Shown in pieces: positions 16,620 through 46,481 of a DNA stretch of 64,000 nucleotides. Made by a program: the position numbers and the translations under genes. The stretch's first letter is position 1; every line of letters begins with the position of its first letter. The notes under the pieces are model-generated. The model worked only from the letters and a program-made list of their open reading frames with translations. It had not been told where the DNA came from and did no database searches. This DNA is from an uncultured Chloroflexia bacterium. Its GTDB lineage: Bacteria; Chloroflexota; Limnocylindria; Limnocylindrales; CSP1-4. Where the stretch lies: the NCBI GenBank assembly GCA_963748675.1, contig CAVVJX010000005.1, positions 260,440-324,439 on the forward strand, read 5' to 3'.

Positions 16620-17432
16620 ATGCGCCTGCCGGTCGCCCTGGTCCAGCTCGATGCGACGGACGACGTCGACGCCAACATCACGACCGCCGCGACGCTCGCG
16701 GCCGAGGCCGCGTCCGGTGGCGCCCGCCTCGTGGCCCTGCCGGAGTACCTTCAGTACCGCGGCGACGACGCCGGCTTCCGCGCCTCCGCGCGACCCATCC
16801 CGGGCCCCCACACCGACGCGTTTGCCGACGTCGCCCGAACGCATGACGCCTGGATCCTCGTGGGCAGCCTCGCCGAGACTTCAGCGGACGACCAACGTCC
16901 CCACAACACGAGCGTCCTGATCGCTCCCGATGGCTCGATCGCGGCGACCTACCGCAAGATCCACCTGTTCGACGTCGCCGTGGACGCGGGCCCGGTCGAT
17001 ACGGAGTCGGCGCGAGTCACGGCGGGCGAAGCCACGGTCGTCGCCGACGTCGATGGCGTCGCCGTTGGCCTGTCGATCTGCTACGACCTGCGCTTCCCGG
17101 AGCTCTATCGATCGCTGGCGCTGGCCGGCGCGGAAGTGCTGACCGTCCCGGCCAACTTCACGGAACGGACCGGGCGCGACCACTGGGAGGTGCTGCTCCG
17201 CGCTCGAGCGATCGAGAACGGCGCCTGGGTCCTCGCCCCATCGCAGATCGGTGGGCCGCCCGGCTCGCCCGCCTTCGGTCGCTCGATGGTCGTGGATCCG
17301 TGGGGCACGGTCGTCGCCCAGGCGCCGGACCGGGTCGGCATCATCCGGGCGGACGTGGAGACGGACCGCGTCGCCGCGGTCCGTCGTCAGATCCCTGTGT
17401 TGGCCAACCGGCGTCCGGCGGCCTATCGCTGA
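16620..17432 (+). CDS. carbon-nitrogen hydrolase (nitrilase superfamily)
   Basis: Catalytic E-K-C context: LVALPEY, YRKIHLFD, LSICYDLRFPE. Confidence 0.85.
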   Translation: MRLPVALVQLDATDDVDANITTAATLAAEAASGGARLVALPEYLQYRGDDAGFRASARPIPGPHTDAFADVARTHDAWILVGSLAETSADDQRPHNTSVLIAPDGSIAATYRKIHLFDVAVDAGPVDTESARVTAGEATVVADVDGVAVGLSICYDLRFPELYRSLALAGAEVLTVPANFTERTGRDHWEVLLRARAIENGAWVLAPSQIGGPPGSPAFGRSMVVDPWGTVVAQAPDRVGIIRADVETDRVAAVRRQIPVLANRRPAAYR

Positions 17433-17450
17433 GCCCGAAGGGCCGGCGCG

Positions 17451-18605
17451 CTAGCGGATGAGCTGGATGCCGATCGATCCCGCGTCGGTGATCGGACCGC
17501 TGCCGACCGGGCCCGACGTGATGTAGCGAACGAACCAGCCGGCGAGACAGCTACTGCTGCCGTTGCCGGCGATCGGCATGAGGGTGGTGCCGTTGCCTTC
17601 GCAAGCGCTGTTGTTCCCGCCGTTCTGATCCGACATGTAGTCGAGGTAGAACGCCGTGACGCGGATGATGTGGTAGACGGCGTTGCTGCCGTTGCCCGTG
17701 ACGCATTCGCCGTCGCAGATCGGGATGAGGACGACCTTGCCGCTGAGGGCGTTGACCTCATCGACCATCTTCTTGGCGCAGTTGTTGCCGTTGTCCGACT
17801 GGACATCGGCCGGGAAGGTCGCGAACTGGATGGCCGGTGGGTTGGTGACCTCGTAGTCGCAGTTGTTCGGCGTGCCATCGAGGTCCAGGATCATGAACGA
17901 GCCGCCACCGGTCTTGCACAGGGGCACGATGTACTCCTGCCCGATCGGCGGATTACCCGGCTGACTCATCTCCCAGTCGGACTCGCTGGTGCCCAGGTCG
18001 CCGTTCGTTTCGCAGTCGGCGATGTTGACCGGGAACACGACCGGAAGGAACTGCCCGCCGGCCAGAGGCCCGGCGATGGCGGTCGCGTCCGCGGAAGCGG
18101 TGAACTGGTTGATGCCGATCACCCGCGCGAAGGCGGTGTCGAACAGCTGATTGCCGGTCGCATGGACACCGGACGTCTCGCCGGGCATGACACCGTCGCC
18201 GACTCGTGCGGCGGCCGTCGTATTGGTGACGACGCCACCGCCCGGGCTGAGCAGCCCGCCGGCTCGGTTCGTGTAATAGGCGGCGACCGAGTCCAGCTTA
18301 TTGGAGGTTGCGATCGAGTTGACCGCGGCCGCGACATCGGCGTCGGTCTTGACCGCTCCGCCGAGCTGCTGGGCGATCACGGTCGCGCCGGCATTCGCCA
18401 CCGCGTCCGCGCCGTTCTGCACGCCACGCTGATGGGCGTAGGCGTTACCACCGTCGAGGATCAGGGCCACGCCACCGATCATCGAGATCATCGCGATGAC
18501 CGCCACGACCAGGATCTGGCCACGGGGCCGGCTCCTCGGACGCTTTGGCGTTGTCTGGTCCATCTTGGCCTCAGTCTTTCGGTGTTGGAAGGGATTCCGG
18601 GTCAT
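17451..18605 (-). CDS. TadG-like (Tad-domain) putative pilus-associated protein, copy 1
   Basis: N-terminal TM plus Tad-type motif ILVVAVIAMISMIGGVALILDGGNAYAHQRGVQNGADAVANAGA. Cys-rich C-terminal domain. The ATG at 18605 overlaps the upstream stop (ATGA); an alternative ATG is at 18563. Confidence 0.75.
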   Translation of the reverse strand: MTRNPFQHRKTEAKMDQTTPKRPRSRPRGQILVVAVIAMISMIGGVALILDGGNAYAHQRGVQNGADAVANAGATVIAQQLGGAVKTDADVAAAVNSIATSNKLDSVAAYYTNRAGGLLSPGGGVVTNTTAAARVGDGVMPGETSGVHATGNQLFDTAFARVIGINQFTASADATAIAGPLAGGQFLPVVFPVNIADCETNGDLGTSESDWEMSQPGNPPIGQEYIVPLCKTGGGSFMILDLDGTPNNCDYEVTNPPAIQFATFPADVQSDNGNNCAKKMVDEVNALSGKVVLIPICDGECVTGNGSNAVYHIIRVTAFYLDYMSDQNGGNNSACEGNGTTLMPIAGNGSSSCLAGWFVRYITSGPVGSGPITDAGSIGIQLIR

Positions 18606-19108
18606 GGCTGCTTCGGACAGTTCAGGGCGGCCACGCCGTCGGTGGGAGTCAGCGGGCAGCTGTACTCGACCGACAACACGGAGGTCGCCTCGAACGTCAC
18701 GCCGTTCTTGAACAGGATGTTGCTGACGAATGGGGTGATCGGGAAGTACGTGGCCTCGAAGGACACGACGGCCAGGCAGCCGACTGCCACGAGGGCGCAC
18801 TGGCTGGAGGTGTTGGGTGTCCCGTCGCTATTGACTTGGTAGAAGTCGATCGCGACGCTCGGGTCGTTGAGCTCGACGATCGCCGTCTGGTCCTTCGCCT
18901 TCTTGATGATGCTGGGCTCGTACTGGTTGACGATCGCGATACGGGCGCCCTCGCGGGCAGCGTTGGTCAGGGTGTTGTAGGCGAACACGGCTCGGCCCAG
19001 ATCGAAGATCCCGACGAGCAGCAGCAGGAAGAGCGGGATGATCAGCGCGAACTCGACGAGGGCCTGGCCTCGACCGCGTCGCGCGTGGTGGCGATCGAAG
19101 AGTTTCAT
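18602..19108 (-). CDS. TadE-like pseudopilin, copy 1
   Basis: Prepilin-type motif G-x4-EF (RGRGQALVEFALIIPLFLLLLVGIFDLGRAV). The ATG overlaps the upstream stop (ATGA at 19105-19108). Confidence 0.8.
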   Translation of the reverse strand: MKLFDRHHARRGRGQALVEFALIIPLFLLLLVGIFDLGRAVFAYNTLTNAAREGARIAIVNQYEPSIIKKAKDQTAIVELNDPSVAIDFYQVNSDGTPNTSSQCALVAVGCLAVVSFEATYFPITPFVSNILFKNGVTFEATSVLSVEYSCPLTPTDGVAALNCPKQP

Positions 19109-20310
19109 GGTCGGTTCACCACGACTGCGCTGTTGCAGGGGACGATCGAGGAGGCGGTGATGGACTGGGTCGTGATCGTGTAGTTGCCGCTAGGCGCACC
19201 TGGGCCGTCGGAAACGGTCCCGGTGAAGCCGGCGCCCGTCCAGACCCCCTGCGCGGAGTTGCGCTTGACGCCATTGAGGGTCGGAGCGGTACACAAGCCC
19301 GAGGCCACCGTGATGTAGTTGACCTTCGTGTGGGTCACGGGTCCCGTCGGGTACGTGACGGTCAAGGTGACCGTGTAGGTGCCTGCGGTGTTGTACGTGT
19401 GGCTGGTGGTCGCGCCGGTGCCGGTGCCCTGGCCCGTCCCGAAGTTCCAGGCGTAGGCCGTCCCGCCCGGAGAGGACGTGCTGGTGAAGTTGACTGCCAG
19501 GGGCGGCGCGCCGGTGTTCTGATTTGTGGTGAAGTTCACCGTGGAGACCGCCGTGACCGTGACGCCCATAGTGGCCGTGCTCGAGCCGAGCGAATTCGTC
19601 GCCGTCATCGTCACGAGATACGTGCCGGGCACCGTGAACACGTGGCTCAGGGGATCCTGCAAGGTCGAGTTGGGGGAGCCGTCGTTGAAGTCCCACAGCC
19701 AGCTCGTCGGGCTACCGCCCGAGGTGTCGCGGAAGACCACGGTGAAGGGAGCCGGGCCGCTCAGCGCTGAAGGCGCCACATCGCCGTTGCCGGTGAACGC
19801 CGCATTCGGCGGACTCCCGCCGGTGCCGCTGCTCGTGGCGGTCATGCCGGTCTTGACGGGGAAGACCGCCGAAGACGAGACGGCAACGGACCCGCCCAGG
19901 ATGTTGGAGATGCCCGGGGTGATGATCCCGAACGTGCAGGTGAGCGACACCGCCGCCTCGTCGCCGAGGTCCTGGCCGGTGAAGGTCGGAGCCGGCGCGG
20001 TCTGCACGCCGCCGACCACCGGGAGCCGGCAATTGTTGGCGGTCGCGTCGTTCTTGATCTGGGCCTGGTAGCGGGCCTTGATCGCCGCGTCACCCGAGCC
20101 CGACCATGCGGTCGGATTGTTCGCCGCCAGGTTGGCGCCGATGCGGGCCATGCTCTGGAGGTTGATCCAGCCCAGATACACGCGACCGAAGTCGAGCGCG
20201 ATCAGCGTCAGCATCAGGATGATCGGCAGGACGAGCGCGAACTCGACAAGGCTCTGGCCTCGCGAGTGGCGATCGCGGCGACCGCGTCGGGTGATGTTCG
20301 GGAGGCGCAT
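19105..20310 (-). CDS. TadE-like pseudopilin fused to two PKD domains and a PASTA-like C-terminal domain, copy 1
   Basis: N-terminus SRGQSLVEFALVLPIILMLTLIALDFGRVYLG. PKD signatures WLWDFNDGSPNS and YAWNFGTGQGTG. C-terminus CTAPTLNGVKRNSAQGVWTGAGFTGTV...ITTQSITASSIVPCNSAVVV. Confidence 0.75.
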   Translation of the reverse strand: MRLPNITRRGRRDRHSRGQSLVEFALVLPIILMLTLIALDFGRVYLGWINLQSMARIGANLAANNPTAWSGSGDAAIKARYQAQIKNDATANNCRLPVVGGVQTAPAPTFTGQDLGDEAAVSLTCTFGIITPGISNILGGSVAVSSSAVFPVKTGMTATSSGTGGSPPNAAFTGNGDVAPSALSGPAPFTVVFRDTSGGSPTSWLWDFNDGSPNSTLQDPLSHVFTVPGTYLVTMTATNSLGSSTATMGVTVTAVSTVNFTTNQNTGAPPLAVNFTSTSSPGGTAYAWNFGTGQGTGTGATTSHTYNTAGTYTVTLTVTYPTGPVTHTKVNYITVASGLCTAPTLNGVKRNSAQGVWTGAGFTGTVSDGPGAPSGNYTITTQSITASSIVPCNSAVVVNRP

Positions 20311-20564
20311 ACAAGGGATCCTTGGAGTACGGGTTCGGAGGTGTGTCACCGATGCTCGGCGAAGCACCTTTCACGGTCCCTTGAAACGGTGCGGGCGTGC
20401 ATAGCCCGGACGGGTCACGGACGGGGGCGAGATAGTCCGGCCCAGGTCCTGCCTCGGCGGCCTTCCGACTGCCCTCGACCGCCCTCAACGCCAGCGAAAC
20501 CCGCGTGGAATCGGAAGAGCCGCGCCCCCCGACGCGGCTCTCCCTCCCCCGGATATTCGCAGGG

Positions 20565-21809
20565 TTACTTGATGAGCTGGATCCCGATCGCCGTCGTCCC
20601 CGGAGCCGTGTTCTGGCCCGGGATGATCGGACCGGCGGTCACGTAGTTGACGAACCAACCCTTGAGGCATCGAATGCGCCACCGTTGATGACGGGCACGA
20701 CCGTACCCTCCGGGGGGGTTCGCGCATTCATCGACGTTGCTGCCCTGGCACGTGGACCTGCTCGAGGTGGAAGACCGCGAGCGTATGGATGTAGTACCAG
20801 GTGTTGTTGCCGTGCGGGTCGGTCCCCGGCTGTCCGGGCAGATGCGCCGTCCCGGATCCTCGCGGCACGCGCCGTTGTTGAGCGGCAACATGACGGTCTT
20901 GCGGATGTAAGCGGACAGCTCGCCGTCCACGCTGTTCGGGTTGCCCGGTTGCGTCTGGAACCAGTCCGGGAGGTTGACCGTGATATTGAGGGGCCCGGTG
21001 ATCTCCTGACCCAGGTTCATGCCGGGCGCCAGGTCGAGCCATCCGAATGCCCCGGACCCACCGCTCGCGCTCTTGCACAGCGGCAGGATCGCCATCTTCG
21101 AAGTGTCGCCATTCGCGAACGTGCCACCTGGCAGCGACTCTGCGCCGACGATCGGCCAGTACTCGTCACCGGGGTCGGCGCCCGGAGGCGGCGCGCCGAT
21201 CCACGGCCCCTGGATGAGATTGCCGGAAGAGTCGCACTGCGACACCTGGACCGGGAACGTGACCGGGAGGAGCACGCAGCCATCGTCGTCCGCGACGCAC
21301 TCGCCGCTCAGCGGACCCGCGACGACCGTTGCCTCGGCAGTCGCCGGGATCTGGTCGAACCCGAAGATCCGGCTGAATGTCGTGCTGACCGTGCGCGAGC
21401 CGGTGGCTCGAACGCCCTCCGCGCCCGTCGGGATCGGCCCGGCCGTGTTCGTCACATTGATGCCGATGGGTGCCCCGAAGTCGTCCGTGTATTCGGCAGT
21501 CCAGCCGGCGAGCCCGTTGGCGAGCGCGCTCGCCGAGACCGCGTTGTACACCGCCAGGTTGTCGCGGCCCGAAGCGCCGCCCATGTACTCGGCGATGACG
21601 ACGGTACCGGCGGTGGCCGCCCCGTCAGCGCCGTTCTGGGCGACACGCTGCTGGGCGAACAGGGCCCCGCCGTCGAGCACGAGCCCGACCATCCCGACGA
21701 CCGCCACGAGGGCCAGAGCGGCGATGACCAGCATCTGCCCTCGGGTGGCGTCTGGCGACGAAGAAGCTCGCATCTTGGTTTTCCTTTCGGCTGACGGAAG
21801 TCTGGGCAT
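20565..21809 (-). pseudogene. TadG-like protein, copy 2, with compensated internal frameshifts (pseudogene or assembly indels)
   Basis: The N-terminus MLVIAALALVAVVGMVGLVLDGGALFAQQRVAQNGADGAATAGT parallels copy 1. Between about 20650 and 20880, the segments matching copy 1 (GNNTWYYIHTLAVFHLEQV, GTVVPVINGGAFDA) lie in the other two frames. Confidence 0.6.
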
Positions 21810-22324
21810 CAGGGTTGCTTCGGACAAAGATCGGCACTCGCGTAGGCGGTGATGTTGACGTTGGGGCACACGAACTCGACCGGCACCTCGGACCGCGCCC
21901 TGAAGGTGATCGGTCCGATGACCTGGCCGAGGATCGGCGTGATCGCGGTCCAGTTCGACTCGGGGCTGACGATCGCGATGCAACCGACGGCGATGTCCCC
22001 GGTAGGGCACACCGGGTTGGACGTGGGCGTCCCTTTTGGGCCTTCGCGATGGAAGCGAACGAAGTTCGGCGTGCCAAGGTTGGTGACGCTGTTCCCGAAC
22101 GTCATCTCGGTTACGCGGTCCTCGATGAGACCCTCGTCCTGGTTCACGGCCGCCAGTCGCGCCCCCTCACGAGCGGCGTTGGTGAGGCCGTTGTAGACGA
22201 ATACCGCCCGCCCGACGTCGAAGACGGCCATCAGGATCAGCATCGCGATGGAAAGACGAGGGTGAGCGACGAATTCAATGAGCGATTGACCTCCCTAGGC
22301 CCGCGACGAGCCGGGACGCCTCAC
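21809..22324 (-). pseudogene. TadE-like pseudopilin, copy 2, with an in-frame TAG in the leader
   Basis: GTG at 22324 overlaps the upstream stop (GTGA). The reading is V-RRPGSSRA-TAG(22297-22295)-GGQSLIEFVAHPRLSIAMLILMAVFDVGRAVFVYNGLTNAAREGARLAAVNQ. The first in-frame start after the TAG (22243) falls inside the TM helix. Confidence 0.55.
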
Positions 22325-23492
22325 GGGCCGACCGTGATGATGGACGCGCATCCGCTCGGCTGCGGGTCGATGGTCCCCCCGGTGATCGACTGGTAGTTGA
22401 TGTCGTAGTTGCCCTGTCCGCCCTGGAACAGGACCTGGGTCTGAATCCGGCACTCGCCCACCGCGCCTGGGCGCTGTTCTTCTTGACGTTCGCGAAGTCC
22501 GGCACCGTGCAGACCTTGTTCGTGACGACGATGTACGCCACCTTCGTGATCGTACTCTGGCCGCCCGTGCTGTCGGTGACCCGCAGCGTGATGTCGAACA
22601 CGCCATCGTTGGGGTAGTTGCGCGATGGCGTCCGGCCCGTCGCGTCGAACGTGCCATCACCGTTGAGATCCCAGTCCCAGGCGACGTAGGTCACCGGGTC
22701 GGCGGGGCGCGCGGTGTCCACGCGACGGTGAGGCCTGTTCGCGGGTCGGTGAAGTCGGCCGGGAGCCGGCGGCAGGGGCGGGACGGTGACCGTGATGTAG
22801 TCGGGCTTCGCGTCGTGTGGGTCCCGCCGGCGCGACGACCCGGAGCGATACGCCGAACGTGCAGGTCTGCCCCGGCGTCCCCGCCAGTTGTACGTGACCG
22901 TCTGCGTCCCCGTCGTCAGGGAGCGTTGGGCGTGGCAGTGCCCGCCCCGGAGCCACCGGGCGCCACCCGGAAGTTCCAGACCTGGCTACGGGGCCGCTGG
23001 TGGATTCGTCGGTGAAAGGCCGCGGTGGGCGACCCGGGAATGCGGGGAAGGTCACCCGCGGGACGACGAGGCACTCGGCGTCCGCGGTCGCCACCAGGAT
23101 CGTTGCTGCCGACGATGTTGGAGATGATCGGGGTGAGGAGGCGGAAGGTCATCTCCACGGTGACGGGAGCGACCGTCGCGGGGTCCCACTGCTCGGGTCG
23201 GGGTCCTTCGGCGCACACAGCCGGCGTCAGGTCGACCGTCGTCCGGTCCACTTCGTCGATGCCGCCATTGCTTCGGTCAGCACGCCGCCATCGCCGGCGG
23301 CGTCACTCCAGCCGATTCGCCGGGATGGTTCGCCGCGATGCGGGTCATCTGCTGGAGGCATTCGGACCGGATCAGCCCAGGAAGACGCGCCCGAAGTCGA
23401 TGGCCGTGAGCATCAGGAGCAGGAGAACGGGCACGACCAAAGCGCAATTCCACGACGCTCTGGCCACGGCTTCGCCTGCGACGACTGGGCAT
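22321..23492 (-). pseudogene. TadE-PKD fusion, copy 2, with multiple frameshifts
   Basis: Homologous pieces lie in three frames. MPSRRRRSRGQSVVE then ALVVPVLLLLMLTAIDFGRVF (shifted) then QQMTRIAANHP; then VEMTFRLLTPIISNIVGS; then the PKD-like WDWDLNGDGTFDATG...ITLRVTDSTGG; then CTVPDFANVKKNSAQARWASAGF followed by the shifted TQVLFQGGQGNYDINYQSITGGTIDPQPSGCASIITVGP. Confidence 0.6.
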
Positions 23493-23678
23493 CACAAACA
23501 ATCTCGGCATCAAGTCCCCCGGCGGATTGGTACGAAAGTCCCCGTATGGTGCCATGGGGACCTTTCACGTCACCTTACGGGTGGTGCGGCGGCGCGCCGA
23601 GCATGACCCGGCTGGCGGGTACTTCGGGGGACCTCTGGGTCAGTTGGCATGGGTCGATCCAGGTAGCACCATCCACAC

Positions 23679-23906
23679 ATGACCAAGCGCATCGCTGCCG
23701 CGTTCCTGTGGTTCTACGCCGGCTGGTATGCCGGGGCCCTGATCGCCGAGTTCCTCGGTGTGAGCGCCCTGCTGGGTCCGATCATCGGTGCCGCCGCGGC
23801 CGGCCTGATCGTCGGCGACCCGCGCCGGATGATCTGGACTGCCCGGGCCGAGCGCCCAGCGTCCGCTCCCGCTCCCGCCCCCGAGGGTCTCGCCGACCCC
23901 GCCTGA
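23679..23906 (+). CDS. small two-helix membrane protein (hypothetical)
   Basis: 75 aa with helices AAFLWFYAGWYAGALIAEFLGV and LLGPIIGAAAAGLIVG. No recognisable family. Confidence 0.4.
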   Translation: MTKRIAAAFLWFYAGWYAGALIAEFLGVSALLGPIIGAAAAGLIVGDPRRMIWTARAERPASAPAPAPEGLADPA

Positions 23907-23977
23907 CCAACGACGACCGCACCCACGCACCGCTGGGGGGATCCGCCGGGCCTGCCAAGGCCCGGCGGCTTCGCGTC

Positions 23978-25450
23978 CTACCCCTCGTCGCCCGGCTCGC
24001 CCGGCAGCACGATCGTGAACGCCGCGCCACGGCCCGCGGCCGCGACCCCGGCCCCGGCCGCAACCCCATTCCCGGCCGCAGGCTCCAGCACCAAGTCCCC
24101 GCCCATCGCCCGGCACAGCTCGCGCGAGACGTAGAGACCCAGCCCGCTCCCCCCGTCCGATCCGGCCTCCTCCCCGCGCGCGAACCGCGCGAACAACCGG
24201 TCACGATCCCCCTCGGCGATGCCGGGCCCGCGGTCCTCGATCGTCAGCCGCACCTTTCGGTCCGCCTCGTCGGCGACGATCCTGGCCCCGACCGGGGTAC
24301 CGCCACCGTACTTCACGGCATTGTCCAGGAGTGCCCACAGGACCTGGTCGAGCTGGTCCGCGTCGGCGACGGCCAGCCAGCCCGCGGCCCCATCCTCGAG
24401 CGAGAAGGGCACGTCATCCACGCCGAGGGCCTCCCACGCCTTGCGCGCGCGCGTGGACAGCGACACGACCTCGGTCCGTGGCTTGAGCGCGCCGGACTCC
24501 AGGCGCGTCACGGTCAGGAGCTGCCGGACCATCCGCGACAGCCGCTCGGACTGCTCCGCGATGATCCCCAGGCGTCGATCAGGCGGGGCCAGCTCCTCGC
24601 TCAGCTGTTCCGCGTAGGCACGGATGCTCGTCAGGGGCGTCTGGAGGTTGTGGCTCACGCCGCGCAGGAAGTCGTCCTTGGCCTCGTCGAGCTCCAGCAG
24701 CTGACGGTTCTGCGACTCCACGGTCGCGAACAGCTGGGCGTTGCGGATCGCCGCGGCCATCGCATTGGCGAAGAGCTCCAGCAGGTCCTGGTCCGCCGGC
24801 TCCCAGCGGCGTGTCGCCGGCAACCGGCCGATCAGCACCCCGATGTCCGCGCCACCCGCCCGCATGACCGCGCGCAAGGGGCGCGAGACACCCGGGACGA
24901 CCTCCTCCTCATCGACGATCGACGGGTCGCCGACCACCACGGTCGCATCGATCAACGCGAACGCCGACGTCGCATCCGACGATGTCCGATCGACCAGTGC
25001 CTCCACATCGTCGCGCAGCGAGACCTCGTCGATGGCCGCGAGGATCCGCCCGAGCTCCCGGTTGCGCCGCCCGAGGTCGGCGGCCAGTCGGTTGTGGCTG
25101 TCGGCCAGTCGCGCGAACTCGTCGTCACCGGCGACCCGGATCGGGGTCGAGAGGTCGCCGGTCGACACTCGGTCCACGGCCGCCACGACCGAGCGGAGCG
25201 GGGCGGTCAGCTCGGTCGCCAGGGCGTACGAGGCGAAGATCGCGAATGCCAGCACGATGGCGATCGCGAACAGGAGGACCCGGCCGATCGTCTCGTCCGT
25301 GACCTGGAGGCGGAATGTCGTCTCGAGGACCAGCACGACCAAGCCGAACGTGGCCAGCGGCAGGACCGACGCCACGATGAACGCGACGGTGAGCCGGGAC
25401 CGGAAGCTCAGCCGGGGGGTGGGTTCGGTGGGCCGCTCGTCCTCGGTCAC
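23978..25450 (-). CDS. sensor histidine kinase (TM-HAMP-GAF-like-HisKA-HATPase)
   Basis: H-box FLRGVSHNLQTPLTSIRAY, N and G boxes (LLDNAVKYG, DRGPGI, GSGLGLYV). GTG start at 25450 overlaps the response regulator stop. Confidence 0.85.
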   Translation of the reverse strand: MTEDERPTEPTPRLSFRSRLTVAFIVASVLPLATFGLVVLVLETTFRLQVTDETIGRVLLFAIAIVLAFAIFASYALATELTAPLRSVVAAVDRVSTGDLSTPIRVAGDDEFARLADSHNRLAADLGRRNRELGRILAAIDEVSLRDDVEALVDRTSSDATSAFALIDATVVVGDPSIVDEEEVVPGVSRPLRAVMRAGGADIGVLIGRLPATRRWEPADQDLLELFANAMAAAIRNAQLFATVESQNRQLLELDEAKDDFLRGVSHNLQTPLTSIRAYAEQLSEELAPPDRRLGIIAEQSERLSRMVRQLLTVTRLESGALKPRTEVVSLSTRARKAWEALGVDDVPFSLEDGAAGWLAVADADQLDQVLWALLDNAVKYGGGTPVGARIVADEADRKVRLTIEDRGPGIAEGDRDRLFARFARGEEAGSDGGSGLGLYVSRELCRAMGGDLVLEPAAGNGVAAGAGVAAAGRGAAFTIVLPGEPGDEG

Positions 25451-26175
25451 CCGGGATCGCTCGTCGGGCTGGCGGGCGTCGCCACCAGTCGATAGCCCAC
25501 GCCGCGCACGGTCTGGACGTGCATCGGGCGGTTGGCGTCCACCTCGACCTTCTGGCGCAGCCGCCGCATCGTGACCCAGACGTAGGACGGGTCGGCGTCC
25601 TCGGTCTCGGCCCAGCCGCGGGCGAGCAGCGTCTCGGTCGTCACGACCTGGCCGAGGTTCGCGGCAAGCGCGTAGAGGAGCCGAGACTCGGTGGGGGTGA
25701 GCTGGACGGTCTGCCCGCGGACGGTCGCCTCGCGCCGGTGCAGGTCGAGCGTCAGGTCCGGACCCAGGTCCAGGCTCTGGCGGGGGACCTTGTCGCCCAG
25801 GCGCCGAAGCACTCTATTGATACGCGCGCGGAGCTCCGGGTAGTGGTACGGCTTGGTGACGTAGTCCTCGGCGACCTCCTCGAGCAGGTCGGCCTTCGAG
25901 TCGCCGGCATCGATGGCGGACAGCACGATGATCGGCAGGTCGGCATGGGTCTTGATCTCGCGCGCGAGGGTCAGGCCGTCCATGCGCGGCATCATCATGT
26001 CGACGATGAGCAGGTCCGGCCAACCCGCCTGCAGCCGCCGGAGCGCCTCGTCCCCGTCGCGCGCGGTCGCGATCTCGTAGCCGTCCGCCCGCAGCTGGTC
26101 GGCCAGCAATACGAGCAGGTTCGGGTCGTCATCGACGATGAGGATCCGGGGGGCTGGACCGCCGCCGCTGAGCAT
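25447..26175 (-). CDS. OmpR/PhoB-family response regulator
   Basis: Receiver domain (ILIVDDDPNLL...LLIVDMMMPRMDG...YVTKP) and winged-helix C-terminus (LTPTESRLLYALA...VRGVGYRL). ATG at 26175. Confidence 0.9.
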   Translation of the reverse strand: MLSGGGPAPRILIVDDDPNLLVLLADQLRADGYEIATARDGDEALRRLQAGWPDLLIVDMMMPRMDGLTLAREIKTHADLPIIVLSAIDAGDSKADLLEEVAEDYVTKPYHYPELRARINRVLRRLGDKVPRQSLDLGPDLTLDLHRREATVRGQTVQLTPTESRLLYALAANLGQVVTTETLLARGWAETEDADPSYVWVTMRRLRQKVEVDANRPMHVQTVRGVGYRLVATPASPTSDPG

Positions 26176-26753
26176 GTGCGTGAGTATGCCGCGCCTCCCC
26201 GGACCCGGGAGAGTACGGATGACGGTGCGCTCGCGCACCGAAAACGGAACTTGTGCGGTCTTGTAGTCCAAATGGGGGATGACTTTCGTCGGTAGGGCGG
26301 TACTGTTGCCGCTCAAGCCGCCCTCGGGGGAGGGCAGGAATTGAACAGTCGACCCGTCCCGTTTCTGGGGAAGCGACACTCGGGCCGAGCGCGCACAACC
26401 AGCACTCATCTTCGTTCGATCTTTTCGGCAGTCAGCGCGATCGACCCGAGCGACCCACCCGCACCACGATCTTGCACTCGGGATCGTGGGCCGCGGGGCT
26501 TTCGCTTCCCCATCGAACTCGACGGGTCTCCGTCACCAACGCGTCCAGGCGTTCAGGGAGGCCTATATGTCCGGTTCAGCCGGCCACCGATCCGTCGCTC
26601 GACTCCTCGTTGCCATCCAGGTCTTCCTGCTCGTGGCTTCTTTCTTCGCGCCCGTCGCGAGCCTGGCGGCCGAGCCGTCGGACGATCCGGGCGCCACGCC
26701 GAGCGCGGAACCGTCCGCCGAGCCGACGCCGGAACCGACCCCGGAACCGACGC

Positions 26754-26888
26754 GCCGAGCCGACCGCCGAGCCGACGGCCGAGCCGACTGCCGAGCCCAC
26801 GGCCGAGCCGACGGCGGAGCCGACTGCCGAGCCCACGGCCGAGCCGACGGCCGAGCCGACCGCCGAGCCCACGACCGAGCCGACGCCG
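26754..26888 (+). repeat. 12-bp tandem repeat GCCGAGCCGACN encoding an (AEPT)n linker
   Basis: About 11 consecutive 12-nt units, seen directly. Flanked by looser PE/PT-rich sequence from about 26695 to 26960. Confidence 0.85.
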
Positions 26889-29800
26889 AGCCGACCGCGA
26901 GCCCACTCCGCCGAGCCGAGCCCGCTCGAGCCGACCGCCGAGCCCACCCCGAGCCGACCGCCCCCGCGGCCACCAAGCCCTACGTCGTCAGCTTCGTCGC
27001 CGGCACCGCCTCCGCCGCGCAGACAGCTGCCGTCGCCGCCGCCGGCGCCACGACCACCGACACGATCGGCGTCCTTCGCATCCACGCGGTCGACGCGTCC
27101 GATGCCGCCGTCGCCCTGCTGCGCGCCGACCCGCTCGTCGGCGCCGTCGAGCTCGATCGCAGCCGCGCCGCCGAGGCCACCCGACCGACCCGAACTACGC
27201 CGACCAGTGGGCCCTGCCGAAGATCGGCTGGGACGATGCGTATCGGCGTCGTCGAGCCCGCCGGCTCCGCCGTCGTCGCCGTCCTCGACACCGGTGTCGA
27301 CGCCTCGCACCCCGACCTCGACGACAACATCGTCACCGGCACCTCGTTCGTCGCGGGCTCCGAGCTGGTCGACCGACACCAACGGCCACGGCACCGCCAT
27401 GGCCGGCATCGTCGCGGCCGAGACCGACAACGGCGCGGGCGTCGCCGGCGTCGGCTACGCCGGCGTCAAGGTCATGCCCGTCACCGTCCTCGGCGCCGAC
27501 GGCCACAGGCCACGACAGCGACATCATCGAGGGCGTCGTCTGGGCAGCCGACCACGGCGCCGACGTCATCCTCATGTCCTTCAGCGCGACCGGCTACTCG
27601 TCCGCCCTGCAGGCCGCCATCGACTACGCCTGGTCGAACGGCGTCGTCCTCGTCGCGGCCGCCGGCAACGACGGCTCGTCGACCCCGGCCTTCCCGGCCG
27701 GCGATCGCGGCGTCATCGGCGTCTCGAACACCGACTCGTCCGATGCCCTGGCCGGCTCGTCCAACTACGGCGCGTCGGTCTTCCTCGGCGCCCCCGGCGT
27801 CGGCATCTGACCACCGAGAACGGTGGCTACTCGACGATCTCCGGCACGTCCGCCTCCGCGGCGCACGTCGCGGGCGCGGCGGCCTTGCTGGCCGCGGCCG
27901 ATTCGATCGCCTCGAACGGCACGATCGTCGGCCGGCTGGCCCGCAACGCCGATGCGGCGGGCACCGTCGGCCGAGACCGGCAATGGCCGGCTGAACCTGG
28001 CCCGGGCCCTGGGCGACACCGCGACCGACTCCGTGAAGCCTGCGGGCGCGGCGCCGGTCGGCGACGGCGGTCCGTTCGTCGGGCCGTACGACGCGGCCGC
28101 AAACAACTTCAACGTGTCGCCAGCAACCCAGAACGTCGCGCCCGGCTTCACGAAGAGCTACTCGTGGGCGTTCACCGCGCAGAACAGCGCCAACCAGGCG
28201 ACAACCACGTTCACGACTCCGGCGGGATGGACCGCGCCAACGACCGCTGCCGGTGCCGGCAACGTGACGGTCGTGGCCGGAACCTGCCCGGCTACCTTGG
28301 CATCCGTGACTAGTGCAACCCGCGTGATCACGATCGACCAGGGCCCAGGTAGCAACACCTGTGCCAATGGGACGACGTTCACGCTCTATTACAACCAGGC
28401 GACGTCACCGACGTCGGCTACTGCACCCGAGCAGACGTATCAGTTCGTGAACCAGCATGGCCAGGATCCGGACGTGACGGTCGAGTACAACTACTTCTCG
28501 AACGTCTCCCCTAGCGGCAACTGGAACGTTGCGGCCAACTGGGAGTTGTGCGACGCGACCACGGGATCGATTGTTCGCCCATCCCTCCGGCTGTCGCGCC
28601 GAGCGCGGCCAACGCGAACCTCATCCATATCCGATCCTTCGACACCATCAATGTTTCTTCTGCGGTTACCGCGGATCAGGTGCACGTCGCCACGGCTGCC
28701 ACGCTGATCATCAATGCCGGTCAGACGCTGACGCTGGCGGATGGCCCCAATGGAGCCGGCGGCTGGCGGACCTCACGTCGGCGGGACGGTCGTGGTCAGC
28801 GGCACGCTGACTCACGCGCCCAGTGCTGGCACAGGTGTGTTTGGCGCGTTCCAAATCACGAGCTCGGGCGTTGTAAATGGCAATGGCGCTAGTCCCGCAG
28901 CCAAGCCCGATTTCATCGTCGCGTTTGGGAATCTGACGATCGATCCGGGTGGCGTGTGGACGACGGGCGGTTCGGGCCCGATGAGGTTGACCTTTGAGTC
29001 AGGGTCAACAGGCACGCTCAACGGAAATGTCACGGGAACGAGTGATCTGACGGTCAACGGCATCGTCACCGCATCTGCGAACATCGCCATGGCCTCGATT
29101 GCCAACCTGCAGATCGGCGGCAGTCTCACGCTGTCGAGCGCCATCCTGACGACACCGCGTGGGAACGGGGAATTTCGTCGCCCAGATCAATTCTGGAGGC
29201 AACCTCGCCCTGGATGGCTCGTCCACATGGAACGTCGGGACCGTGGCCGCTGCTCGTGGCGAGGTCCGGAGCGGCGGCACGCTCGCAATGAGCCCATCTT
29301 CGGAAGTCCTTGGCGCAGGGTTCCTGCAAGTCGACTCTGGCGCGACGCTACGTATCGGTTCGGCCGACGGTATCGCGAACAGCACGACCACCGGTAACGT
29401 CCGGACGTCGGCCGCCGACACCTACTCGACCGCTGCCAATTACACCTACGACGGCGCGACCCAGGTTACCGGCAACGCCTTGCCTGCGACGATCGCCACG
29501 CTCACGATCGCCAGCACCGGCGTCGTTACCATAAGTAGCCTGGGGGCCCTTCAAACGGTCACCGGGCTGACCGCCGCGACGTCCGGGACGTTCGATCAGG
29601 GACCGAGCATCAACCTGACCGCGGGTGGCGGCATCTCAGTGGCCGCCGGCGCGACCTACCGAAACCTCGGCACTGGCGATCTGACGCTCGGGTCTGCCGG
29701 CGTGACCAACGCGGGCGCGATCCAGATCAACGCAAACGGCGCCACTTGCGGCAATACCGACGACATCCTGATTCGCCGACCAACATTGGAACGCAGCGCC

Positions 29801-30305
29801 CATGGTCGGGCGTCGGCACCTTTGACCTGCAGGACATCAACGTCCGTGACCAGGCCGGAACGGCGCGATCACGGTCATCAGCGGAACGAACCTCGCCAAC
29901 AACGGCGCGAACTGGACGTTCGTGGCCTCCTGCAACAGCGCGCCTGTCGCCACAACCCCGGCGTTCAGCCCCGCCAGCCCCACCACCAACAGCCTGCTCC
30001 AGGGCTCGACGACGGTGACCGACGCTGACCTCAACAGCTCGACTGTCGCGTTCCTCTGGAGGGTGACCCGCGGGCTGACCACGTGCGATGTGCGCACGAT
30101 CACCTCGGCTGCCGCTTCGAGCGGCGCCGTCCATACCGACACGCTCAACCTCGGGATCAGCCACACCGCGACGAACTGCGTCGGGCCGGTCCTTGCCACC
30201 ATCAACCCCTCAGAGGGTGATGTCATCACCTTGACCGTGATCCCGAACGACGGGACGGTCAATGGCACAGCACAAAGCAACTCCGTGACCGTGGGGAACT
30301 CGGCC

Positions 30306-31769
30306 CCGGTCTGCCTGGACGTCACGATCACGACCGACGAGGACACCGCCGGCTCCACGGCGCCGAGCTGCACCGACGCCGACGGCGAGACCCTGACCTA
30401 CACCGTCACCGCGGCCGCGACCGGCATCTCCGGGACCGACGGCACGCCTCGACCCTGACCTACGACCCGAACGGCCAGTTCGAGTACCTCGACACCGGTG
30501 AGACCGCGACCGACGCGTTCACCTACACGGCCAACGACGGCACGGTCGACTCGAACGTCGCCGACGTCGACGTCACGATCAACGGCGTCAACGACGCCCC
30601 GGTCTGCCTGGACGTCACGATCACGACCGACGAGGACACCGCCGGCTCGCACGGCGCCCGAGCTGCACCGACGCCGACGGCGAGACCCTGACCTACACCG
30701 TCACCGCGGCCGCGACCGGCATCTCCGGGACCGACGGCACGTCGACCCTGACCTACGACCCGAACGGCCAGTTCGAGTACCTCGACACCGGCGAGACCGC
30801 GACCGACGCGTTCACCTACACGGCCAACGACGGCACGGTCGACTCGAACGTCGCCGACGTCGACGTCACGATCAACGGCGTCAACGACGCCCCGGTCTGC
30901 CTGGACGTCACGATCACGACCGACGAGGACACCGCCGGCTCCACGGCGCCGAGCTGCACCGACGCCGACGGCGAGACCCTGACCTACACCGTCACCGCGG
31001 CCGCGACCGGCATCTCCGGGACCGACGGCACGTCGACCCTGACCTACGACCCGAACGGCCAGTTCGAGTACCTCGACACCGGTGAGACCGCGACCGACGC
31101 GTTCACCTACACGGCCAACGACGGCACGGTCGACTCGAACGTCGCCGACGTCGACGTCACGATCAACGGCGTCAACGACGCCCCGGTCTGCCTGGACGTC
31201 ACGATCACGACCGACGAGGACACCGCCGGCTCGCACGGCGCCGAGCTGCACCGACGCCGACGGCGAGACCCTGACCTACACCGTCACCGCGGCCGCGACC
31301 GGCATCTCCGGGACCGACGGCACGTCGACCCTGACCTACGACCCGAACGGCCAGTTCGAGTACCTCGACACCGGTGAGACCGCGACCGACGCGTTCACCT
31401 ACACGGCCAACGACGGCACGGTCGACTCGAACGTCGCCGACGTCGACGTCACGATCAACGGCGTCAACGACGCCCCGGTCTGCCTGGACGTCACGATCAC
31501 GACCGACGAGGACACCGCCGGCTCCACGGCGCCGAGCTGCACCGACGCCGACGGCGAGACCCTGACCTACACCGTCACCGCGGCCGCGACCGGCATCTCC
31601 GGGACCGACGGCACGTCGACCCTGACCTACGACCCGAACGGCCAGTTCGAGTACCTCGACACCGGCTGAGACCGCGACCGACGCGTTCACCTACACGGCC
31701 AACGACGGCACGGTCGACTCGAACGTCGCCGACGTCGACGTCACGATCAACGGCGTCAACGACGCCCCG
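30306..31769 (+). repeat. tandem array A: five near-identical ~291-bp units (97-aa cadherin/VCBS-like module)
   Basis: The unit encodes VCLDVTITTDEDTAGSTAPSCTDADGETLTYTVTAAATGISGTDGTSTLTYDPNGQFEYLDTGETATDAFTYTANDGTVDSNVADVDVTINGVNDAP. GTCTGCCTGG recurs at 30309, 30602, 30895, 31186 and 31478, giving spacings of 293, 293, 291 and 292. Confidence 0.9.
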
Positions 31770-33520
31770 GTCGTCACGCTCGACGCTGGGAACGACCTCA
31801 ACGTGGACGAGGGCTCGACGACTTCGTACGAGTTCTCGATCTTCGACGCCGAGGGCGATTCAGTCGACCGCCGTGACGGTCGACTGCGGCGCCAACGGCG
31901 ACCCGGCCACCAACGTCACCTTCACCGATCACGACCGGCAGCTTCGACTGCACCTTCCCCGACGGCGACGCCCTGAGCACGATCAGTGCCAGCGCGACCG
32001 ACTCGGACGGCGACACCGGCGCGGCCGACACCCAGGTGGTCACGATCAACAACGTGGCCCCGACGGTGACCCTGTCGGCGCTCAACGACCTCGACGTCGC
32101 CGAGGGCTCGACCACGACCTACACCTTCTCGATCTTCGATCCGGGCGACGACACGGTCACCGCCGTGACGGTCGACTGCGGCGCCAACGGCGACCCGGCC
32201 ACCAACGTCACCTTCACCGACACGACCGGCAGCTTCGACTGCACCTTCCCCGACGGCGACGCCCTGAGCACGATCAGTGCCAGCGCGACCGACTCGGACG
32301 GCGACACCGGCGCGGCCGACACCCAGGCGGTCACGATCAACAACGTGGCCCCGACGGTGACCCTGTCGGCGCTCAACGACCTCGACGTCGCCGAGGGCTC
32401 GACCACGACCTACACCTTCTCGATCTTCGATCCGGGCGACGACACGGTCACCGCCGTGACGGTCGACTGCGGCGCCAACGGCGACCCGGCCACCAACGTC
32501 ACCTTCACCGACACGACCGGCAGCTTCGACTGCACCTTCCCCGACGGCGACGCCCTGAGCACGATCAGTGCCAGCGCGACCGACTCGGACGGCGACACCG
32601 GCGCGGCCGACACCCAGGTGGTCACGATCAACAACGTGGCCCCGACGGTGACCCTGTCGGCGCTCAACGACCTCGACGTCGCCGAGGGCTCGACCACGAC
32701 CTACACCTTCTCGATCTTCGATCCGGGTGACGACACGGTCACCGCCGTGACGGTCGACTGCGGCGCCAACGGCGACCCGGCCACCAACGTCACCTTCACC
32801 GACACGACCGGCAGCTTCGACTGCACCTTCCCCGACGGCGACGCCCTGAGCACGATCAGTGCCAGCGCGACCGACTCGGACGGCGACACCGGCGCGGCCG
32901 ACACCCAGGTGGTCACGATCAACAACGTGGCCCCGACGGTGACCCTGTCGGCGCTCAACGACCTCGACGTCGACCGAGGGCTACGACCACGACCTACACC
33001 TTCTCGATCTTCGATCCGGGTGACGACACGGTCACCGCCGTGACGGTCGACTGCGGCGCCAACGGCGACCCGGCCACCAACGTCACCTTCACCGACACGA
33101 CCGGCAGCTTCGACTGCACCTTCCCCGACGGCGACGCCCTGAGCATCGATCAGTGCCAGCGCGACCGACTCGGACGGCGACACCGGCGCGGCCGACACCC
33201 AGGTGGTCACGATCAACAACGTGGCCCCGACGGTGACCCTGTCGGCGCTCAACGACCTCGACGTCGCCGAGGGCTCGACCACGACCTACACCTTCTCGAT
33301 CTTCGATCCGGGTGACGACACGGTCACCGCCGTGACGGTCGACTGCGGCGCCAACGGCGACCCGGCCACCAACGTCACCTTCACCGACACGACCGGCAGC
33401 TTCGACTGCACCTTCCCCGACGGCGACGCCCTGAGCACGATCAGTGCCAGCGCGACCGACTCGGACGGCGACACCGGCGCGGCCGACACCCAGGTGGTCA
33501 CGATCAACAACGTGGCCCCG
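31770..33520 (+). repeat. tandem array B: one diverged plus five near-identical 291-bp units (a different 97-aa Ig-like module)
   Basis: The unit encodes VVTINNVAPTVTLSALNDLDVAEGSTTTYTFSIFDPGDDTVTAVTVDCGANGDPATNVTFTDTTGSFDCTFPDGDALSTISASATDSDGDTGAADTQ. GTGGTCACGATCAAC (GCGGTC in the unit at 32327) recurs at 32036, 32327, 32618, 32909, 33203 and 33494. Confidence 0.9.
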
Positions 33521-42078: not shown

Positions 42079-43455
42079 GTGGCCACTGCCGCCCCGCCCA
42101 CGGGTCCTGCCCCGCGCGCCGGCGGTCTCGCCGCCCTGACGCCGAGTGGCCGCGCGGTCGTCCCGGTCGCGTGGGCCCTGTACGACCTCGCCAACACCAT
42201 CTTTACGTATTCGGTCGTGTCGTACGCGATGGGGCTGTGGGTGATCGACCGCCTCGGACCGGCCGACGGGCAGTTCTGGTTCGGTGTGGCGGCCGCGGCC
42301 AGCGTCCTGCTGAACGCGATCGTGTCGCCGATCCTGGGAGCGATCAGTGACCGCGGAGGCAGGCGGTTGCCGTACCTGCTGGTCTTCACCGCGATCACGG
42401 TCGTGGCGACCGCCCTGATCGCGTTCGTGGACGCGGCCGCTTTCGGCCTGCTGCTGTTCGCGATCGCGAACTTCGCCTACCAGGCGGCCCTCATCTACTA
42501 CGACGCCACCCTCCCGGTCGTGGCCAAGCCCGAGGCACGGGGACGCATGTCGGGCATCGGCGTGGCGGTCGGCTATATGGGCACGCTGATCATCGCCGGC
42601 CTGATCCTGATCACGGGCTCCGGGGCGGAGCCGCTCACGTTCCTCATGGCCGCGGGCCTGTTCACGGTCTTCGCCATCCCGATCTTCGTGTTCGTGAAGG
42701 AACGAGCCGTGAGCGACTACCGGTTCCAGCTGCGTGACGTGCTGTCGTCGTGGTCGCAGCTCGGAACGACGATCCGCCACGCTTCGGAGGTCCCGGGTCT
42801 GATCCGGTTCCTGGTCGGGCGGTTCTTCTACACGGACCCGGTCAACACGGTGATCGTCGTGATGAGCGTCTTCGCCACCGAAGCGATCGGCCTGTCGAGG
42901 GCCGACGTCAACATCGTCCTGTTGCTGCTCACGGTCGTGGCCGTGTTCGCGAGTCTCGGCTGGGGCCGCCTCGTGGAGCGGATCGGACCGAAGCGGACGC
43001 TGATCATCGTGCTCGGGACGTGGTGCGTTGGCCTGCTCATCGTGGGTGCCGTCCTGTCCTTCCCGACGTTCCTGATCGGTGGCGCGCTGCTGGGCGCGGG
43101 GCTGGGCGGGGTCTGGACGTCGGACCGGGTGTTCATGCTGCGGCTGTCGCCGCCGGACAAGGTCGGCGAGTTCTTCGGCCTGTACGGGATCGCCGGCAAG
43201 TTCAGCGCGGTCACCGGGCCGCTGTTGTACGGGGCGATCGTGTCGAGCCTGCTCAACGCCGGCTGGGGCGCGGGGGCGTACCAGGTCGGCATCCTGAGCT
43301 TCCTCGGGCTGATGCTGATCGGGGTCGCGCTGCTCCGGGGTGTGCCGGAGCCGCCGGACCGGATCCCGACCGAGCCCGTGGTCCCGCCGCTCGCGCCACC
43401 GGTCCGCCTCGCCCCAGCTGCCGCGCCGATCACGCCCGGCGATCAGTCGGAGTAG
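42079..43455 (+). CDS. MFS transporter (UMF1/Atg22-like by resemblance)
   Basis: N-terminus WALYDLANTIFTYSVVSYAMGLWV and about 12 TM helices. The GTG start at 42079 is tentative. Confidence 0.75.
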   Translation: MATAAPPTGPAPRAGGLAALTPSGRAVVPVAWALYDLANTIFTYSVVSYAMGLWVIDRLGPADGQFWFGVAAAASVLLNAIVSPILGAISDRGGRRLPYLLVFTAITVVATALIAFVDAAAFGLLLFAIANFAYQAALIYYDATLPVVAKPEARGRMSGIGVAVGYMGTLIIAGLILITGSGAEPLTFLMAAGLFTVFAIPIFVFVKERAVSDYRFQLRDVLSSWSQLGTTIRHASEVPGLIRFLVGRFFYTDPVNTVIVVMSVFATEAIGLSRADVNIVLLLLTVVAVFASLGWGRLVERIGPKRTLIIVLGTWCVGLLIVGAVLSFPTFLIGGALLGAGLGGVWTSDRVFMLRLSPPDKVGEFFGLYGIAGKFSAVTGPLLYGAIVSSLLNAGWGAGAYQVGILSFLGLMLIGVALLRGVPEPPDRIPTEPVVPPLAPPVRLAPAAAPITPGDQSE

Positions 43456-44442
43456 CCGCCCTGGTGCGCCTGACGCCACGCCCAGGCCGAGCCGACGATC
43501 TCGTCGAGGCTGGGCCGGTGCGGCCGCCAGCCGAGGATCTCCCCGGCCCGCGCCGCCGACGCGACGAGGACCGGTGGGTCGCCCGTCCGCCGCGGGCCGA
43601 TCTCGTGCGGGATCGCGTGACCGACCACGCGCTCGGCGGCGGCGAGCACCTCGAGGTTGCTGAACCCGCCGCCGTTGCCCAGGTTGCAGATGACGGCGCC
43701 GCGGGCGGTGCGCTCGTCGTCGCGGGCCGTGGCCTCGATCGCCCGCAGGTGCGCGTCGGCCAGGTCGGCCACGTGGATGTAGTCGCGGACGCAGGTGCCG
43801 TCGGGCGTCGGGTAGTCGCCGCCGAACACCGTCACCGGGCCGGCCGGCCTCGAGCGCGCCGAAGATCGCCGGGATGAGGTGCGTCTCGGGGTCGTGGTCC
43901 TCGCCCAGCGCCTCGGTCGCGCCGGCGACGTTGAAGTAGCGGAGCGTGACGCTGCGCGTGCCGTAGGCCCGGGCGTACCAGAGCAGGGCGCCTTCGAACG
44001 CGCGCTTCGTCTCGCCGTACGGGTTGATCGGCCGGAGCGGGGCGTCCTCCGTGATCGGGGTGGCGTCGGGGACGCCGTAGACGGCCGCGGTGGACGAGAA
44101 GACCACGCGATCGACGCCGACCTCGCGCGCCGCCTCGAGCAGCGTGATGCCGCCGGCGACGTTGTCGCGGAAGTAGCGGGCGGGGTCTTCGATCGACTCA
44201 CCGACCAGCGAGCGCGCCGCGCAATGGAGGATCGCCTCGACGTTCTCGGCGGCGAGGAGGCGGGTCACGGTGGCGCTGTCGCCGTAGCTCCCGACGTGCA
44301 GCTGCGCCCCCTGCGGGACCGCGGAACGATGCCCGGTCGTGAGGTCGTCGAGGACCACGACCTCGTGGCCTGCCTCGAGGAATGCCTCGGCTGACACCGA
44401 GCCGACATAGCCGGCACCGCCGGTCACGAGAACCTTCGTCAT
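43443..44442 (-). pseudogene. galE: UDP-glucose 4-epimerase with one frameshift (pseudogene or 1-nt assembly insertion)
   Basis: N-terminus MTKVLVTGGAGYVGS...YGETK in one frame. From about 43845 the sequence continues as VTVFGGDYPTPDGTCVRDYIHVADLADAH...GGYSD in another frame. Removing one G from CCCGGTGAC restores the frame. Confidence 0.8.
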
Positions 44443-46464: not shown

Positions 46465-46481
46465 GTCGCCCGCTCGGGGCG

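Follow-up and report, generated by a model that had tools for sequence, protein, structure and literature searches.

The TadE/TadF/TadG proteins of Aggregatibacter actinomycetemcomitans and the CpaJ/K/L proteins of Caulobacter are encoded by three-gene sets. Canonical tadE-F-G genes are located inside the tad operon, downstream of tadC. Type IV pilins can also be modular, with an adhesive domain grafted onto a pilin core on the filament, as in PilB (vWA module) and PilC (lectin module) of Streptococcus sanguinis. Here, we analyzed two neighboring TadE/TadG-type cassettes (modules 1 and 2) in a 64,000-nucleotide stretch of DNA from an uncultured Chloroflexia bacterium (C5:260440-324439). This whole stretch is called the window, and window positions are counted from its first letter. 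The source genome (G000) is a 3.6-Mb metagenome-assembled genome (MAG) with 13 contigs and 84% completeness. Module 1 is intact, and module 2 is broken by many frame shifts in the deposited sequence. The best overall explanation is likely that both are old, functional cassettes and that the lesions of module 2 are technical.

The cassettes resembled the Aggregatibacter and Caulobacter systems in their PF07811 and PF13400 matches, in the G/xxxxEF leader with a hydrophobic helix, and in their three-gene organization. Unlike the canonical genes, they were detached from the operon and multiplied, and the core locus of the genome was without them. One TadE of each cassette was 401–439 aa long because of its PKD modules, and no vWA domain was detected in TadG1 or TadG2. 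The pilins of S. sanguinis belong to type IVa-like pili of Firmicutes, whereas the protein here is a Tad-type pseudopilin with PKD domains.

The closest described systems are those of the Kil Tad pilus in Myxococcus xanthus. This species has TadE/F/G-like 'Tip' clusters in four paralogous versions, and three of these lie apart from the kil core clusters (PMC12075869). Its tip proteins are predicted to form heterotrimers with variable distal domains, and they are genetically redundant (Herrou et al. 2025, PMC12075869). The KilL/KilM/KilN clusters and the cassettes here are alike in being three-gene TadE/TadF/TadG-like sets with domains grafted on pilin cores. In both cases, several paralogous sets occur per genome, mostly away from the core, and one machine is accompanied by several clusters (PMC12075869). 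They also differ from the Kil clusters (PMC12075869). The cassettes here stand in direct tandem, with two to four in a row across the genus. Their host is a Chloroflexota soil bacterium, Limnocylindrales-like by the names of its hits, and, as far as known, not a predator. PKD domains, together with a small alpha/beta domain, make up their grafted modules, known from genes and single-chain models. The cassettes belong to a known kind, and the feature is ordinary.

Two paralogous TadE-PKD/TadE/TadG cassettes

Both modules were on the minus strand, arranged head to tail, each with a TadE-PKD fusion gene, a short TadE gene and a TadG-like gene in that order. The original prediction had described them as tandem paralogous modules of the same order and strand. 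This description was confirmed, with every gene assignment backed by Pfam, and the same arrangement was found in contigs L018 and L019 of other assemblies (see below) and in the arrays of relatives. The curated cut-offs were 22.9 bits for PF07811 (TadE) and 22.3 bits for PF13400 ('Tad'). Every TadE/TadG assignment tested exceeded them in both modules, and so did the L018 proteins TadE-PKD2 (46.2 bits), TadE2 (60.2 bits) and TadG2 (30.3 bits). The pilin leaders ended with Gly and had Glu at position +5 and a hydrophobic helix, as in SRG/QSLVEFALVLPIILML of TadE-PKD1, RGRG/QALVEFALIIPLFLLLL of TadE1 and SRG/QSLVEFALVFPIAMLIL of L018 TadE2.

Frames were tracked with a plot of G+C content at third codon positions (GC3) and a codon-usage hidden Markov model (HMM) trained on the source genome. 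Each module 1 gene lay in a single uninterrupted codon-bias frame, so module 1 was clean, as had been predicted. Its first gene, TadE-PKD1 (19105..20310, minus strand), encodes 401 aa with Pfam matches to TadE (45.9 bits) and, in two stretches, to PKD_4 (96.4 bits). This modular minor pilin begins with a prepilin-type leader ending G/QSLVEF and an N-terminal helix with a small sheet. Two PKD domains follow, and the C-terminus is formed by an alpha/beta domain of about 65 aa. In the AlphaFold 2 (AF2) model (mean predicted local distance difference test score (pLDDT), 86), these parts appeared as a helix at residues 19–64, strands at 118–151, two beta-sandwiches at 172–335 and a small alpha/beta domain at 339–399. 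Foldseek matches of the model were tandem Ig/PKD proteins, and the whole-model search was dominated by the PKD domains. Searches for a PASTA-like nature of the C-terminal domain gave no hit in Pfam down to E ≤ 5 and no sequence match in PDB.

The second gene, TadE1 (18602..19108, minus strand), encodes a short TadE-like pseudopilin of 168 aa (Pfam TadE, 71.6 bits) with the leader RGRG/QALVEF. The third gene, TadG1, occupies 17451..18605 or 17451..18563 on the minus strand, depending on whether translation starts at the ATG at 18605 or at 18563, and its product has 370–384 aa accordingly. TadG1 has a PF13400 N-terminus (25.8 bits) and a Cys-rich C-terminal domain. In its AF2 model, the N-terminal helix and sheet (residues 14–170) were confident and pilin-like. 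The C-terminal domain had a pLDDT of 56–85, and this moderately confident model gave no fold match in PDB at E ≤ 0.001. No vWA family was found in Pfam scans of TadG1, TadG2 and L018 TadG2. From their sequences, TadG1 and TadG2 are classed as TadG-like by the N-terminus only.

Reading both modules confirmed the shared C-termini that had been noted. TadE1 and TadE2 both end with CPKQP, and TadG1 and TadG2 end with IGIQLIR and IGIQLIK, respectively. The stop/start overlaps had also been described as conserved. Overlapping junctions were indeed present in both modules, but they were similar rather than identical, with ATGA and ATGA in module 1 versus GTGA and TGATG in module 2. At the protein level, the modules were only 30–41% identical, so the duplication is old and the modules are old paralogues. 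A recent duplication was rejected on account of this low identity and the tandem occurrence of both module types in diverged relatives.

Module 2 lesions and intact counterparts

The original prediction listed at least six frame breaks and an in-frame TAG in module 2. Lesions were counted by frameshift-aware dynamic-programming alignment against intact orthologues, together with a three-way DNA alignment of the window, L017 and L018 (L017 being a further contig from another assembly). The breaks were real features of the deposited sequence and had been undercounted: about 17 frame-shifting indels and one in-frame TAG were found. The GC3 plot and the codon HMM also indicated repeated frame changes, with GC3 of 0.8–0.97 in the local frames.

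Most lesions were in the first gene, TadE-PKD2 (approximately 22321..23555, minus strand), whose PKD_4 match was on the fragment 22275–22721. Alignment to the intact 439-aa L018 protein revealed 13 frame-shifting events, near 23444, 23358, 23218, 23180, 23101, 22994, 22923, 22885, 22835, 22809, 22763, 22701 and 22441. Ten of the 13 resembled the loss of one base. The three-way alignment further showed losses of about 51, 14 and 12 nt relative to L018. Once the frames were followed, the protein was 82% identical to that of L018.

TadE2 (21809..22324, minus strand) had an intact body and no net frame shift, and its truncated open reading frame (ORF) matched Pfam TadE at 34.0 bits. Its leader and first helix were scrambled. 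Alignment with L017 and L018 showed that the in-frame TAG at 22295–22297 was created by nine missing nucleotides. A local duplication of 7 nt was present near 22262, and one nucleotide was missing near 22240. An alternative genetic code for the TAG was rejected, because the codon falls in a 9-nt deletion patch that neither L017 nor L018 shares.

TadG2 (20565..21809, minus strand; the ORF with the PF13400 match of 32.9 bits spans 20565–21773) remained open but passed through three frames. It stayed open because its four events, near 20827, 20748, 20708 and 20670, sum to a multiple of three. Programmed frameshifting and phase variation were also considered for module 2 and rejected. The lesions were complex, were not at slippery or repeat sites, differed between assemblies and had counterparts genome-wide.

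Intact counterparts were found in other assemblies. A protein search with TadG2 retrieved P0002, which was identical to the window's TadG2 at all aligned residues outside two scrambled stretches. L017, the contig encoding P0002, matched the window at 931 of 932 nt without gaps over the 5' part of TadG2, and its gene was intact. In the next 315 nt toward the 3' end, the window and L017 differed by 14 mismatches and six gaps, none of which was a multiple of three. Over the same 315 nt, L017 and L018 differed by 31 mismatches and no gaps. L017 had none of the four TadG2 lesions; it had its own single-base indels at other sites, where the window was clean.

Two contigs of short-read style gave similar results. 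Contigs of relatives were labeled short-read-style or long-read-style, and L018 received its label from a k133_ assembler-type name. All module-2 genes of L018 were intact, encoding 439, 182 and 392 aa, and module 1 began downstream. In L019, a scaffold of a short-read-style Chloroflexota MAG, all six genes were in single frames. Its module-2 genes were 79–97% identical to those of L018, and its module-1 genes were 87–92% identical to those of the window.

The gap-free parts of module 2 were compared for signs of selection. The ratio of non-synonymous to synonymous substitution rates (dN/dS) between the window and L018 was 0.041 for TadG2 (dS, 0.25) and 0.072 for the C-terminal part of TadE-PKD2. 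Between the window and L017, there were six synonymous changes and no non-synonymous change. Module 2 showed no sign of relaxed selection. The lesions were confined to short patches within otherwise identical sequence.

These data bear on the earlier proposal that module 2 is a decaying or silent copy. As a rival explanation, module 2 would be a true set of pseudogenes in this strain: an alternative tip cassette that is silent or was inactivated recently and is now disappearing, with module 1 carrying the function. In its favor, the deposited sequence has about 17 events and a TAG in module 2 versus none in the adjacent module 1. Multi-base losses affect the 5' third of TadE-PKD2, and none of 120 listed homologues is a close intact match to it. 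Redundant paralogous cassettes are also plausible candidates for loss (PMC12075869). The pattern of differences from L017 argues against decay, as a single mismatch in the 932 nt of the 5' part of TadG2 is followed by six gaps of non-triplet length in the next 315 nt, which is unlike neutral decay. If 17 indels were gathered by neutral decay, they should come with many substitutions. The observed balance of indels to substitutions is the reverse of this expectation, and neutral decay is therefore incompatible with the data. The low dN/dS (0.04–0.07) and GC3 of about 0.9 in the local frames also argue against it. Together with the intact genes in L017, L018 and L019 and the genome-wide breaks described below, these results did not bear out the proposal, and we consider true pseudogenes very improbable.

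The 5' part of TadE-PKD2 was a special case. The search for TadE-PKD homologues gave more than 400 matches in public data, of which 120 were listed. Nearly all of the 120 were about 370–460 aa long, and most had both TadE and PKD. Over 23460–23040, L017 and L018 were only 62–70% identical in DNA, compared with 90–95% in the flanks, and both were in frame. In TadE-PKD2, this hypervariable zone corresponds to the exposed domain that follows the pilin helix. Diversifying selection or an exchange of alleles at the pilus tip may lie behind it. The nearest relative of the window was L018 upstream of approximately 23300 and L017 downstream of approximately 22950.

A mixed case was weighed on this basis. 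In the mixed case, the single-base breaks are mostly errors, and the 5' third of TadE-PKD2 (approximately 23400–22700) is truly different, either as a shorter third allele of the hypervariable domain or through a rearrangement or deletion. The in-frame divergence of L017 and L018 shows that the stretch is truly hypervariable, and local frames of the window yield plausible protein, such as VCAEGPRPEQWDPATVAPVTVEMTFRLLTPIISNIVG. The missing stretches of 51, 12 and 14 nt exceed typical consensus errors, and the window changes from L018-like upstream of the stretch to L017-like downstream. However, such a switch of nearest relative is equally expected from the consensus of two co-assembled haplotypes. 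In addition, 13 frame changes in 1.2 kb cannot all fit a working allele, and none of the 120 listed homologues was an intact protein with the window version. The mixed case is improbable in our view.

Frame breaks across the assembly and in relatives

Frame switches without a nearby stop were used to detect assembly errors, and the same detector was applied to the loci of relatives as a control. The source genome contained 1,324 stop-less frame switches, or 0.37 per kb. Their distribution was patchy: 172 five-kb bins had at least three, and some bins had 15–29. Module 2 scored just three on this coarse detector, and many regions were equal or worse. In the loci of relatives, the density was 0.07 per kb in short-read-style and 0.60 per kb in long-read-style assemblies, a difference of about nine-fold. 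Split TadE/TadG genes were found in several long-read-style loci and in none of the short-read-style loci, and they affected either module at differing sites. This enrichment argues against decay of module 2.

Conserved genes were affected in the same way. In the window, galE (43444–44442) was split at 43842, and cca, encoding the CCA-adding enzyme (45133–46491), was split at 45867. There was no stop at either switch, and both halves read as good protein in two frames. In the source genome, uvrA, pilB, tadZ, tadB and cpaB were also split. That core genes of the same window and genome are broken likewise is a further point against the pseudogene reading. About 16 stop-less switches were present at 26750–33150 of the window (plus strand), where blocks of an S8 subtilisin-like protease were spread over three frames. 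This run is an error patch like that of module 2. A repeat-rich region was also observed within 26750–33150.

Close relatives of the source genome include Nanopore MAGs of the Microflora Danica (MFD) catalogue with contig_N names. The authors of its long-read part (MFD-LR) reported Nanopore-associated errors, mainly at lower coverage (PMC12313526). The source genome resembled the indel-rich Nanopore MAGs of MFD-LR (PMC12313526) in its few contigs, reduced completeness and patchy, gene-splitting single-base indels. By this likeness, it appears to be the same kind of Nanopore-derived MAG as its MFD relatives, and its assembly is very probably long-read only. Its membership in the MFD-LR catalogue (PMC12313526) would be an assignment by resemblance.

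The lesions of module 2 were called technical because of the intact near-identical copies, the low dN/dS, the genome-wide breaks and the enrichment in long-read-style assemblies. As judged from these comparisons, the frame breaks and the TAG are very likely consensus errors of an error-rich metagenome assembly and not signs of decay. We infer that strain mixture caused the errors in module 2. Errors would be concentrated where co-occurring strains differ most. A consensus made from reads of at least two strains over a divergent stretch would contain small indels, multi-base losses and a switch of the nearest relative.

Several observations weigh against consensus errors as the whole cause. The evidence comes from other assemblies and genome-wide statistics. 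The losses of about 51, 12 and 14 nt are of unusual size for a simple base-calling error, and the adjoining module 1 is without any break. For the version of TadE-PKD2 at 23300–23040 of the window, no close match was found among the 120 listed homologues, the best being of the L018/P0121 type. Part of the 5' stretch of TadE-PKD2 could be genuine, whether as an allele or as a lesion, and the TAG could be a true substitution.

If consensus errors are the cause, a story of a decaying paralogue would have rested on errors of the assembly. In this genome, and probably in many MAGs of the genus with few contigs, clustered frame breaks must not be taken for pseudogenes. This caution is the main value of the analysis.

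The Tad machine, other cassettes and a possible role at the pilus tip

The original prediction regarded the cassettes as orphans, with no Flp pilin, prepilin peptidase, ATPase or TadB/C in the window. Profile scans of the window likewise found no match to a T2SSE ATPase, a T2SSF platform protein, Flp or an A24 peptidase. A genome-wide search then located a complete core locus for the Tad machine at C5:41.1–48.6 kb, about 230 kb from the cassettes and on their own contig. It contained TadB/TadC (C5:41102-43005), a TadA/CpaF ATPase (C5:43006-44319) and five tandem Flp-like pilin genes (C5:47141-48528), which were below the Pfam cut-off and had the G/LAEYALIL motif. The locus further encoded a CpaB-like protein and a TadZ fused to a receiver domain, and several core genes changed frame. 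No TadE or TadG gene was found in the core locus itself. The description as orphans was right in substance.

Two A24 peptidase genes were found in the genome (C4:84262 and C9:189570). Further TadE/TadG-like cassettes were located at C7:14284-16752, C12:7744-11139 and C9:23020-24825, with some genes changing frame. In the C12 cassette, the TadG-like protein was about 620 aa long and a CpaB-like gene came next, and the TadG-like protein of the C9 cassette appeared vWA-like by eye.

Arrays of two to four cassettes were also found in other members of the genus, at least seven genomes (G012, G021, G007, G011, G016, G004 and G023), and tandem arrays of this size are common there. L015 (G021), L016 (G007), L029 and contig C4 of G016 had three or four TadE-TadE-TadG cassettes side by side, and in G016 both orientations occurred.

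By analogy with Myxococcus, each cassette may encode a complex that serves as an alternative tip or in priming and exposes PKD modules for adhesion, which we consider fairly probable. The three proteins of a cassette would form a tip or priming complex of a Flp/Tad pilus. The pilus would be assembled by the machine at C5:41–48.6 kb, with five flp genes, cpaB, tadZ, tadA, tadB and tadC. Adhesive modules at the pilus tip would be provided by the PKD and C-terminal domains, and the tandem and dispersed cassettes would supply alternative tips. It counts against this role that KilLMN of Myxococcus is its sole basis.

A broader reading was also considered. The arrays could be a diversifying, switchable repertoire of adhesins for one Tad machine with five Flp pilins, located next to a two-component system, and the garbling of module 2 could be a footprint of strain-level hypervariation of the tip. 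We regard this reading as doubtful. Under the tip-complex reading, the cassettes would provide a Chloroflexota example for the recent idea that Tad pili owe their specificity to TadE/F/G tip complexes that can be exchanged and whose genes lie apart from those of the machine. The results are useful for annotation and for adhesion studies in uncultured soil Chloroflexota, and they open no new question.

Other pilus-related genes were observed in the genome. A type IVa pilus locus at C4:76900-84600 contained PilT, PilC, PilB and a prepilin peptidase, with PilB split at approximately 83100. A third ATPase of the T2SSE family was present at C5:416152-416982, in a 640-aa open frame about 92 kb past the end of the window, and no T2SSF platform gene was near it.

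The spacer between the modules (20311..20564, minus strand) contained a G+C-rich hairpin (GAGCCGCG...CGCGGCTC) after the TadG2 stop. The hairpin was not called by the terminator scan because it lacks a T run. The terminator and promoter scan of 17000–24200 gave a result no better than shuffled sequences. A two-component pair, consisting of a histidine kinase and a response regulator, was encoded immediately upstream of module 2 at 23978–26409 (minus strand), and this pair may regulate the cassettes. A gene for a small membrane protein of 75 aa (23679–23906, plus strand) lay between the pair and module 2. The end of a kinase gene and a small membrane-protein gene were likewise present upstream of module 2 in L018.

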